Below, in pieces: positions 15,933 to 16,710 of a stretch of 46,544 nucleotides of DNA. The DNA comes from a virus (Duplodnaviria > Heunggongvirae > Uroviricota > Caudoviricetes): the IMG/VR virus record IMGVR_UViG_2851955134_000005; one strand, 5' to 3'. The translations under genes were made by a program, and so were the position numbers. The notes beneath the pieces were generated by a model. That model made no database searches, was not told the origin of the DNA, and worked only from the letters and a program-made list of their open reading frames with translations. How positions within the stretch are numbered: position 1 is the stretch's first letter; each line of letters starts with the position of its first letter.

Positions 15933-15961
15933 TTGCATTTTTCAAAAAATATGGATAAGAT
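15933..15961 (+). promoter_or_regulatory. candidate late promoter pR'
   Basis: TTGCAT, 17 nt, TAAGAT, about 50 nt upstream of the terminator. Confidence 0.4.
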
Positions 15962-16007
15962 TTTCCCAACGATGGGCTTTGTATGTCTACCGTTGATAAG
16001 ATTTAAG

Positions 16008-16033
16008 AACCCGCCACTGAGCGGGTTTTTTTG
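16008..16033 (+). terminator. tR'-like rho-independent terminator (copy 1)
   Basis: ACCCGC-cactga-GCGGGT followed by T-run; identical copy at 16684-16710. Confidence 0.7.
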
Positions 16034-16181
16034 TGCCAGATGTCTCATGAAACTATGAAATGGATTGGTGCGTTAAACATTTTTTCTTATTATCTTTTAG
16101 ATTTTGGAGAGATGGTTAACGTCTGTATTCCAGAAACTCGATGATTATTTAATAAATTAGTTTCAATGATGCTTCTAGGTT

Positions 16182-16607
16182 ATGACTGTAATGAAAAAGG
16201 TATTAATAGCAGCGATAGGTTTTTGTTTAGTTGGTTGTGCAGGTATGAAATTACCTGAGTATTCGCAAGTTAAAGCAAGTCCGTATTATACAGATTGCCG
16301 TGCGTTTGCCATGGATGTTTATAAAAATGATGGATACAGCAAAATTGCGAAAACTACTATCCTTAGCATGGATGATGTGAAGGCTAGATATATTGTGACA
16401 GGGTGTGTAGTTGCTATGGGGAAAAACACTGTAGAGGAAATCAAAGCTGATCTCTCTGCTAAAGGGAGTTCTTTTGGGCTTATCAGTGGAGCTTGTTCTA
16501 GTGCGGCATGTCGGGTTGATGTAGAGCAGCAAATGAACGCTTATGTACTTGGTAGTTATTATGCTGCAAATAAAAAATTCCCGGATAAAATGAAAGCAGA
16601 GTTTTAA
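16182..16607 (+). CDS. lipoprotein moron (141 aa)
   Basis: Signal peptide with lipobox LVGC; AT-rich cassette between duplicated terminators. Confidence 0.6.
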   Translation: MTVMKKVLIAAIGFCLVGCAGMKLPEYSQVKASPYYTDCRAFAMDVYKNDGYSKIAKTTILSMDDVKARYIVTGCVVAMGKNTVEEIKADLSAKGSSFGLISGACSSAACRVDVEQQMNAYVLGSYYAANKKFPDKMKAEF

Positions 16608-16683
16608 GTAAACCTTGTTTTCGATTATATGTCGAAGATAAATGTTAGTAACGGCATAATAAGTAAATATATAGCTGTGATAG

Positions 16684-16710
16684 CAACCCGCCACTGAGCG
16701 GGTTTTTTGT
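16684..16710 (+). terminator. rho-independent terminator (copy 2, identical hairpin to 16008-16033)
   Basis: AACCCGCCACTGAGCGGGTTTTTT repeated verbatim. Confidence 0.7.

Follow-up and report, generated by a model that had tools for sequence, protein, structure and literature searches.

A lipoprotein cassette bracketed by two copies of a terminator hairpin in the late operon of a lambdoid phage

The stretch of DNA analysed here, called the window throughout, is the 46,544-nucleotide (nt) IMG/VR virus record IMGVR_UViG_2851955134_000005 (Caudoviricetes), and the element under study is a small lipoprotein gene enclosed by two identical copies of a terminator hairpin, directly after the antiterminator gene Q and the late promoter PR'. 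The locus is probably (about three chances in four) a moron: a horizontally acquired 677-bp cassette, formed by a hairpin copy, a leader, the lipoprotein open reading frame (ORF) and a trailer, and placed right after the Q-controlled terminator tR'. The anatomy of the cassette, its insertion polymorphism, the behaviour of the hairpin as a junction and the selection acting on the ORF are established at the level of sequence. A moron had been proposed from the letters of the window alone (the original prediction), and this stands, given that the cassette is absent from near-identical phages, is compositionally foreign and carries a gene found in unrelated contexts.

The repeated hairpin and the cassette between its copies

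The cassette and the two terminators comprise five features:

16008..16032, + strand: terminator copy 1, assigned to tR' (exact repeat, hairpin followed by U7; a rho-independent terminator is annotated here in SfV)
16033..16190, + strand: cassette leader, with a weak promoter candidate and a block (about 16086-16112) that recurs upstream of distant homologues
16191..16607, + strand: lipoprotein gene, 138 amino acids (aa), or 141 aa from the alternative ATG at 16182 (ORF, lipobox, phrog_4748)
16608..16684, + strand: AT-rich 77-nt trailer from the stop codon to copy 2 (read directly)
16685..16708, + strand: terminator copy 2, which closes the cassette (exact repeat, hairpin followed by T6, terminator scan)

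The 24-mer AACCCGCCACTGAGCGGGTTTTTT was identified exactly twice in a search of the whole window, both times on the + strand, at 16008-16031 and 16685-16708, with a start-to-start spacing of 677. There is no third match in the window, even with up to 3 mismatches, and none was obtained in 100 dinucleotide-preserving shuffles. The verbatim repeat described in the original prediction is therefore real, and the positions given there (16008-16033 and 16684-16710) were off by 1-2 bases. Both copies fold into a 7-10 bp G+C-rich hairpin followed by U6-U7, and the tails past the T run are alike, imperfectly, for about 11 bases: T7-GTGCCAGATGT in copy 1 and T6-GTACCTGTAAAC in copy 2. The duplicated unit is the hairpin plus these 11 or so bases and not the hairpin alone. 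The terminator scan flagged copy 2 and not copy 1, which we attribute to the stem of copy 1 being able to extend into its own T run, so that the tail criterion of the scan fails. The depositors of Ayreon annotated both terminators, and Rfam returned only sub-threshold matches of the 'leader' type, which reflect the hairpin-plus-terminator shape.

CCCGC/GCGGG stems are common in enterobacterial terminators and have many loop variants, and the two hairpins might accordingly be independent terminators, alike by convergence or chance, in which case the repeat would be uninformative on the arrival of the cassette. This is extremely improbable: the identity covers 24 of 24 bases including the 6-nt loop, in the E. 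coli version and likewise in the Salmonella one the two copies stay alike beyond the T run, and two loop-shuffled hairpins of the same composition gave 0 matches in 2.9 million viral contigs. The shuffles of the window and these two database controls effectively refute it. A third loop, ATCG, chosen as a 'control', exists naturally as an allele of this terminator family and, being no control, was set aside.

One convincing ORF lies between the copies (16182-16607, 141 aa). The GC content of the cassette is 0.34-0.42 versus about 0.50 in the flanks, in line with the AT-rich composition first reported, and the ORF has a GC of 0.39 and a third-position GC of 0.29 versus 0.51 in the flanks. A 37-aa ORF at 16031-16144, a CDS in Ayreon (phrog_37626), is probably no gene: it starts in the T run of copy 1, lacks a ribosome-binding site and has an ATG that is not conserved in the Salmonella cassette, and it was treated as non-coding.

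The region is 99.6-100% identical in mEp460, Ayreon, 15 records of Stx2c-converting phages and many E. coli chromosomes, and the cassette interior was identified in 214 of 5,426 complete E. coli genomes (about 4%). The junction in either state, occupied or empty, was found in 309 complete E. coli genomes, which leaves an empty site in the order of a hundred genomes. Among the phages, vB_EcoM-720R4 and SfV share Q, the PR' leader, orf75 and the methylase with the window but possess a single hairpin and lack the cassette, which leaves a clean 677-bp gap in the alignment. Such cassette-free relatives were the comparison suggested at the outset, together with the idea that the cassette had entered by recombination within the terminator. 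The empty sites have exactly one hairpin, at the position corresponding to copy 1, and this ties the duplication to the insertion, with recombination presumably taking place inside the hairpin. The contrary case, two copies with nothing between them, was seen neither in 120 viral loci nor in the E. coli genomes.

Between 720R4, which is empty, and mEp460, which is occupied, there are 0 differences in 808 positions of the left flank and 1 in 472 of the right flank. Occupied sites accompany three or more Q haplotypes, 21-35 bases apart. The occupied phages share a constant copy 2 (loop A, T6, GTACCTG), which is the single allele of empty 720R4, right flank included. Copy 1 has a loop that varies among them (A, G or C, with mEp460 and others differing by 1 base from the window), T7 in most, and a GTGCC tail like that of the single allele of SfV. 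It follows from this variation that the perfect identity of both copies is specific to the lineage of the window.

The hairpin as a junction between late-region modules

Homology with other phages breaks at the hairpin, which identifies it as a mosaic junction. In hundreds of E. coli genomes the match runs only rightwards from the hairpin (from query position 190 on) or only up to it (1 to about 212-222), and in viral contigs the alignments begin at 16685 or stop at 16031-16040. The gene upstream of the hairpin in 120 sampled viral contigs with the exact 22-mer is one of three different Q types or belongs to many other families. The exact hairpin CCCGCCACTGAGCGGGTTTTTT and the loop variant CCCGCCATCGAGCGGG were each identified in more than 50 independent gene contexts (at least 51 for the 22-mer), lying in viral loci downstream of genes for Q, for tail, portal and protease proteins and for small secreted proteins. 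Some of these loci have in common, behind the T run, the tail RTGCCTGGAGAAAAG-N-ATG with a ribosome-binding site and a start codon.

The bracket recurs with a diverged cassette in a Salmonella prophage (contig L004), where the order is a Q of the DUF1133/PF06530 type, AGCCCGCCACTGAGCGGG-T7-GTACCTGAAAC, the cassette, AACCCGCATTGCGCGGG-T5-GTATCCGAAAC and a truncated methylase. This cassette is 74% identical to that of the window in nucleotides and 77% in protein. Its second hairpin has the same stem and another loop, and the tails of the pair match GTAYCYGAAAC; the same bracket with a duplicated tail of about 11 nt indicates that the arrangement predates the split of the two cassette versions. 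The 77-nt trailer is missing, the second terminator lying 13 nt past the stop codon. At 6440-6810 of the same contig only the 3' third of the methylase is left, the left end of the deletion falling right after the terminator tail.

Different cargo is present in contig L103 (IMGVR_UViG_3300011784_000022), which has Q, PR', the hairpin, a PemK/MazF-like toxin gene, a second hairpin of the family and the holin. The toxin ORF (within 2365-3081) has 133 aa and matches PF02452 with an E value of 5e-12, and no antitoxin ORF is evident next to it. The recurrence of the bracket (Salmonella lipoprotein, PemK-like toxin), the 51 or more contexts, the shared RTGCCTGGAGAAAAG-ATG tail and the zero matches of shuffled loops are the grounds for a wider and rather doubtful proposal, namely that tR' and the 11 or so nt after it form a portable junction at which single-gene cargos are exchanged in the leader of the late operon, and possibly at other intergenic sites, across phages with unrelated Q, as a cassette-exchange system based on a terminator. 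In the same doubtful reading the orphan lipoprotein, conserved from Serratia chromosomes to large Klebsiella plasmids with phage-like genes, could also be a new envelope-defence or exclusion factor.

A strictly mobile cassette, which would excise as a circle with one hairpin and re-insert at the hairpin by dedicated or structure-specific recombination, as at integron attC sites, is unlikely. It would explain the direct repeat exactly at both ends, the empty sites with one copy, the many contexts of the 22-mer against none for the loop-shuffled controls and the other cargo bracketed alike at the same site in L103. There is, however, no linked recombinase gene adjoining the cassette in any context examined; the Serratia copies of the gene and those of contigs L126-L129 lack this hairpin pair and have other terminators instead; the flanking haplotypes are explained equally well by ordinary homologous exchange of the whole region; and the abundance of the hairpin may reflect common descent in abundant phage lineages. 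The likeness to integron cassettes consists of a promoter-poor single ORF, a hairpin repeat and occupied and empty states that differ by one cassette plus one repeat. Unlike them, the window contains no integrase or attI, its hairpin has 24 nt (repeat 24-36 nt) and a T run versus 57-141 nt for attC, and nothing in it indicates single-strand, structure-specific recombination. Insertion sequences (IS) and miniature inverted-repeat elements do not fit either, with no inverted repeats at the cassette ends and a duplicated segment of at least 24 nt that is itself a hairpin.

The explanation preferred here is that the hairpin and about 11 bases form a conserved junction common to otherwise unrelated late-region modules, exchange at which accounts for occupied and empty versions on the same and on different Q haplotypes. 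The cassette would be gained or lost precisely at the repeat, most likely by short-homology recombination through RecA or phage enzymes of the Red/RecT type. Recombinases of the Red type and Rad52-like phage recombinases drive mosaicism via short, diverged homologies (PMC3945230). The conserved boundary or linker sequences between genes of lambdoid mosaics are similarly short module borders that coincide with homology breakpoints; the boundary in the window differs in being a predicted terminator, present twice and bracketing a single-gene cargo.

The late leader of E. coli IAI39 (contig L131, 21607-23364) has taken up further accessory DNA at another point: a gene of the ClbS/DfsB family (four-helix bundle) and an ISEc53 transposase separate orf75 from the methylase. 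Copies of IS903B or IS1B interrupt the region in other genomes.

The lipoprotein and its homologues

The original prediction described a lipoprotein of 141 aa with the lipobox LVGC. ORF and lipobox are as described, and the start differs: the alignment with homologues begins at the second ATG (16191), which makes the protein 138 aa long, with the signal peptide MKKVLIAAIGFCLVG ahead of the lipobox C and a mature protein of about 122 aa. The signal peptide has the positive n-region, the hydrophobic h-region and the lipobox ([LVI][ASTVI][GAS]C) expected of lipoproteins. Within L-V-G-C, the G-C pair is invariant in the aligned homologues and the consensus form is kept in all; the lipobox Cys and four further Cys, five in total, are also invariant. 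Residue +2 is Ala (Ser in one homologue), and sorting to the outer membrane is expected from the Lol avoidance rule (no Asp at +2). The AlphaFold2 model is a confident one (predicted local distance difference test score of 84) and has five helices. The product would accordingly be a Lol-sorted outer-membrane lipoprotein with a small, disulfide-stabilised helical periplasmic domain. The gene is under purifying selection, with a ratio of nonsynonymous to synonymous substitution (dN/dS) of 0.08-0.35, and its PHROG match is phrog_4748, a family of undescribed function. We infer that it is most likely a lysogenic-conversion or envelope-protection factor.

In sequence or fold it has no likeness to Bor/Iss, Cor, Llp or TraT. 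Like the surface-modifying Bor, Cor, T5 Llp and plasmid TraT, it is a lipoprotein of small size whose lipobox is of the classical type, which comes from a temperate phage and is not needed for virion production; it differs from them in its predicted all-helical bundle with two likely disulfides. A literature search retrieved no paper that mentions WP_000217632, and the papers on the LF82 prophage morons and on orf6/orf10 of phiv142-3 concern different genes.

The protein family is narrow (8-11 clusters in a word-indexed protein search and an exhaustive profile search), yet larger than the first protein searches indicated. In a tblastn search of plasmids a homologue at about 55-65% identity (63-65% in tblastn) was identified in 204, of which 194 belonged to Klebsiella; the hosts of these some 200 plasmids also include Cronobacter and Citrobacter. 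Non-mobilizable plasmids make up 200 of the 204, and those listed are about 100-120 kb in size. In the Klebsiella plasmid p23-2 (contig L256, 3998-4728) the homologue lies in the replication region, among phage-like genes such as dnaE and a 5'-3' exonuclease, and a Buttiauxella plasmid (contig L005, 6001-6745) has the homologue together with phage-like genes including gp32; by our own classification these large plasmids are phage-plasmids. In both of them a second lipoprotein gene, of 99 aa, comes immediately after the homologue. It was rejected as a paralogue, the alignment being limited to the signal peptides.

Chromosomal copies were identified in four Serratia among species-representative genomes, placed (in S. 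fonticola at least) between emrAB-like and yfiF-trxC-like genes. Further copies are found in the early-left region of Salmonella prophages, beside VapBC, KilR and RecE, and one more adjoins blc and type II secretion genes. The gene occurs in four or five unrelated genomic contexts and is everywhere AT-richer than its surroundings (GC 0.39-0.46 versus 0.43-0.57). Ahead of the Serratia chromosomal copies, at about 2860-2895 of contigs L133-L135, a perfect palindrome, TATGGGGCGGTTCAAA.ATGGACCGCCCCATA, forms a hairpin that lacks a T run and marks the upstream border of the conserved leader of 110 nt.

Predicted expression, known systems and significance

The surroundings of the cassette are those of a lambda-type late operon:

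15149..15901, + strand: antiterminator gene Q, 250 aa from ATG 15149, open from GTG 15107 (PF03589 Antiterm)
15933..15976, + strand: late promoter PR', with -35 TTGCAT at 15933-15938, a 17-nt spacer, -10 TAAGAT at 15956-15961, 6 nt and AACGATGGG at 15968-15976
16807..17034, + strand: orf75, first resident late-leader gene after the cassette (phrog_331), beside the single hairpin in 720R4 and SfV
17185..18237, + strand: DNA N6/N4 methyltransferase (PF01555, E value 2e-42; PADLOC MTase_II, E value 1e-152)
18244..18268, + strand: third intrinsic terminator, before the lysis genes (terminator scan; an equivalent is annotated in SfV and Ayreon)

A DUF968 gene lies upstream of Q, and the holin at 18304-18519 is followed by the endolysin and Rz/Rz1. 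The Q protein matches Pfam PF03589 with an E value of 1.3e-53 and is homologous to lambda Q (PDB 7UBM, E value 1.3e-37; also 4MO1). It is about 45 residues longer than lambda Q, with extra DnaJ-type CXXCXGXG zinc-finger repeats (PF00684, E value 3.6e-7) in a segment that falls between two regions alignable with lambda Q.

Sequence comparison of PR' in the window (TTGCAT-17-TAAGAT-6-AACGATGGG) with that of lambda (TTGACT-17-TAAATT-6-AACGATGGG) shows the same spacing and the pause element at the same positions; AACGAT is what we take to be the sigma70 pause-inducing element of lambda. The same build is present in the related phage L103. Transcription would start at about 15968, and since copy 1 begins 40 nt past this position it is, as far as the sequence allows it to be read, the tR' of the operon. 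The cassette thus occupies the Q-dependent late leader, directly after PR'-tR', as the original prediction had it with reference to the site where Shiga toxin (Stx) phages carry their toxin genes, and the Stx2c records mentioned above carry the same cassette; no stx is present anywhere in the window, also as stated there. From PR' to copy 1 a leader RNA of about 65 nt is predicted, and an 81-nt leader folds with z=-3.76.

An unrelated RNA was considered for this locus and rejected: sRNA-17, an ArcA-modulated small RNA of 193 nt from the mEp460-like prophage of E. coli K1 RS218 (PMC7719688). It maps to the early region of the window and only in part, 8035-8064 (+) matching exactly its 5' part, with the Northern-probe part absent. 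The match looks like one of the 'degenerate' copies of that paper (PMC7719688).

Expression of the cassette is proposed as follows. In the lysogen, PR' would be constitutively active and its transcripts would stop at copy 1 as an RNA of some 65 nt that resembles 6S and StxS; signals within the cassette leader of about 110-160 nt would drive the lipoprotein gene; and copy 2 would keep cassette transcription out of the methylase and the lysis genes. After induction, Q-modified polymerase would pass all three terminators and the lipoprotein would be made with the late proteins. PR' is constitutive in lambda and in Stx phages, where the RNA ended at tR' can be a functional small RNA (PMC7547250).

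The leader is the element on which this scheme turns. Its weak promoter candidate, TTGGTG-17-TATTAT (16065-16093), has a conserved counterpart, TTGGTA-18-TATCAT, in the cassette of Salmonella. Some 110 nt ahead of the ORF move together with it between unrelated contexts, and a block TTATyTyT..GATTTTGGrnAyAT precedes the gene in Serratia, in the Klebsiella plasmid and in L129. This co-travelling leader is moderate evidence for autonomous expression signals, not proof of them.

Several points weigh against the reading of the locus as a moron with its own expression. A consensus promoter scan found no promoter in 16033-16190, and the best candidate fits 8 of 12 consensus positions, so that the leader has no strong sigma70 promoter. 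Termination and Q read-through at both copies are predictions, and the gene may be a late gene and nothing more. Presence and absence alone do not distinguish an insertion from a deletion, nor is gain versus loss polarised by the flanking single-nucleotide differences, the occupied state being polyphyletic relative to the Q haplotype. Stretches of 24 identical bases are at the lower limit for efficient RecA recombination. As regards the cargo, searches of Pfam, NCBIfam, PADLOC (defence systems) and PDB sequence profiles gave no match for the lipoprotein, and Foldseek with the AlphaFold2 model gave no fold match (E value of 0.048 or more).

Some of these points feed a possible, if less probable, alternative, in which the cassette has no promoter of its own and contributes an extra late gene, transcribed only from PR' with Q and with a lytic role (for example masking a receptor, like T5 Llp, to spare progeny phage from being lost to cell debris), copy 2 being a functionless scar. 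Besides the empty promoter scan, it would suit the position of the gene in the late leader beside the lysis genes in both E. coli and the Salmonella prophage L004, and Q-modified polymerase, from what is established on Q antitermination, would ignore copy 2. It is less easily reconciled with the homologues outside late operons (Serratia chromosome, early-left region of Salmonella prophages, replication region of the Klebsiella plasmid), with the conserved block in the upstream sequence that travels with the ORF, or with the diverged Salmonella cassette, which keeps a second terminator despite the loop change and suggests selection on terminator function. We continue to prefer a moron read from its own leader.

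Morons, a term said to have been defined by Hendrix and Juhala, reportedly include bor and lom of lambda and those of HK97 and HK022. The cassette resembles lambdoid morons as an extra gene in some members of a group, with low GC, transcription signals at the flanks, dispensability and an envelope protein as product. Dispensability for lytic growth would follow from the deposited genomes without it (720R4, SfV) and with it (mEp460, Ayreon). It differs from them in three respects: the terminator that closes the cassette repeats the tR' of the operon verbatim instead of being an unrelated one, the promoter of the cassette is not evident from the sequence, and the cargo falls outside the described families, Bor/Iss, Lom/Ail, Cor and TraT included. 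The location between Q and the lysis genes is shared with the moron described in SfIV (PMC3851460).

With the PR'-qut-tR' region and 6S RNA of lambda and with StxS (PMC7547250) the window shares a Q homologue, a AACGATGGG promoter at lambda spacing and an intrinsic terminator, and, with the lambda and Stx leaders in general, a predicted constitutive short transcript in lysogens and, in the Stx2c relatives, stx in the same operon. The lambda leader measures 194 nt and that of Stx phages 258 nt, whereas the one in the window has only about 65 nt and is followed by a second identical terminator 677 nt further on.

The Stx2c phage LC727876, the one examined for this purpose, has an identical block of Q, hairpin, lipoprotein, hairpin, orf75 and methylase, followed by stx2A and stx2B (PF00161 and PF02258, the RIP and SLT_beta domains), downstream of the cassette and before the lysis genes. 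The stx region (contig L130, 7769-9150) comes after the point corresponding to 18184 of the window, the homology with which stops near the 3' end of the methylase.

Morons as such and morons between Q and lysis genes are already known, and the sequence itself is in published phage genomes; the cassette does not overturn current understanding. Particular to this locus are the closing copy of tR', the recurrence of the bracket with other cargo and other Q types, and the uncharacterised cargo family. If the proposed reading is true, the locus is a clean natural case of harmless cargo addition beside lambdoid lysis genes, fenced by the operon's own terminator, with the same terminator being the recombination junction for the spread or loss of cargo. 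The lipoprotein, being conserved, selected and uncharacterised, is worth including in functional screens for exclusion, for resistance to serum or lysozyme and for toxin immunity. In Stx phages, where the cassette lies upstream of stx2c, it would be co-transcribed with the toxin after induction, and an effect of the lipoprotein on the envelope could touch the biology of toxin phages.

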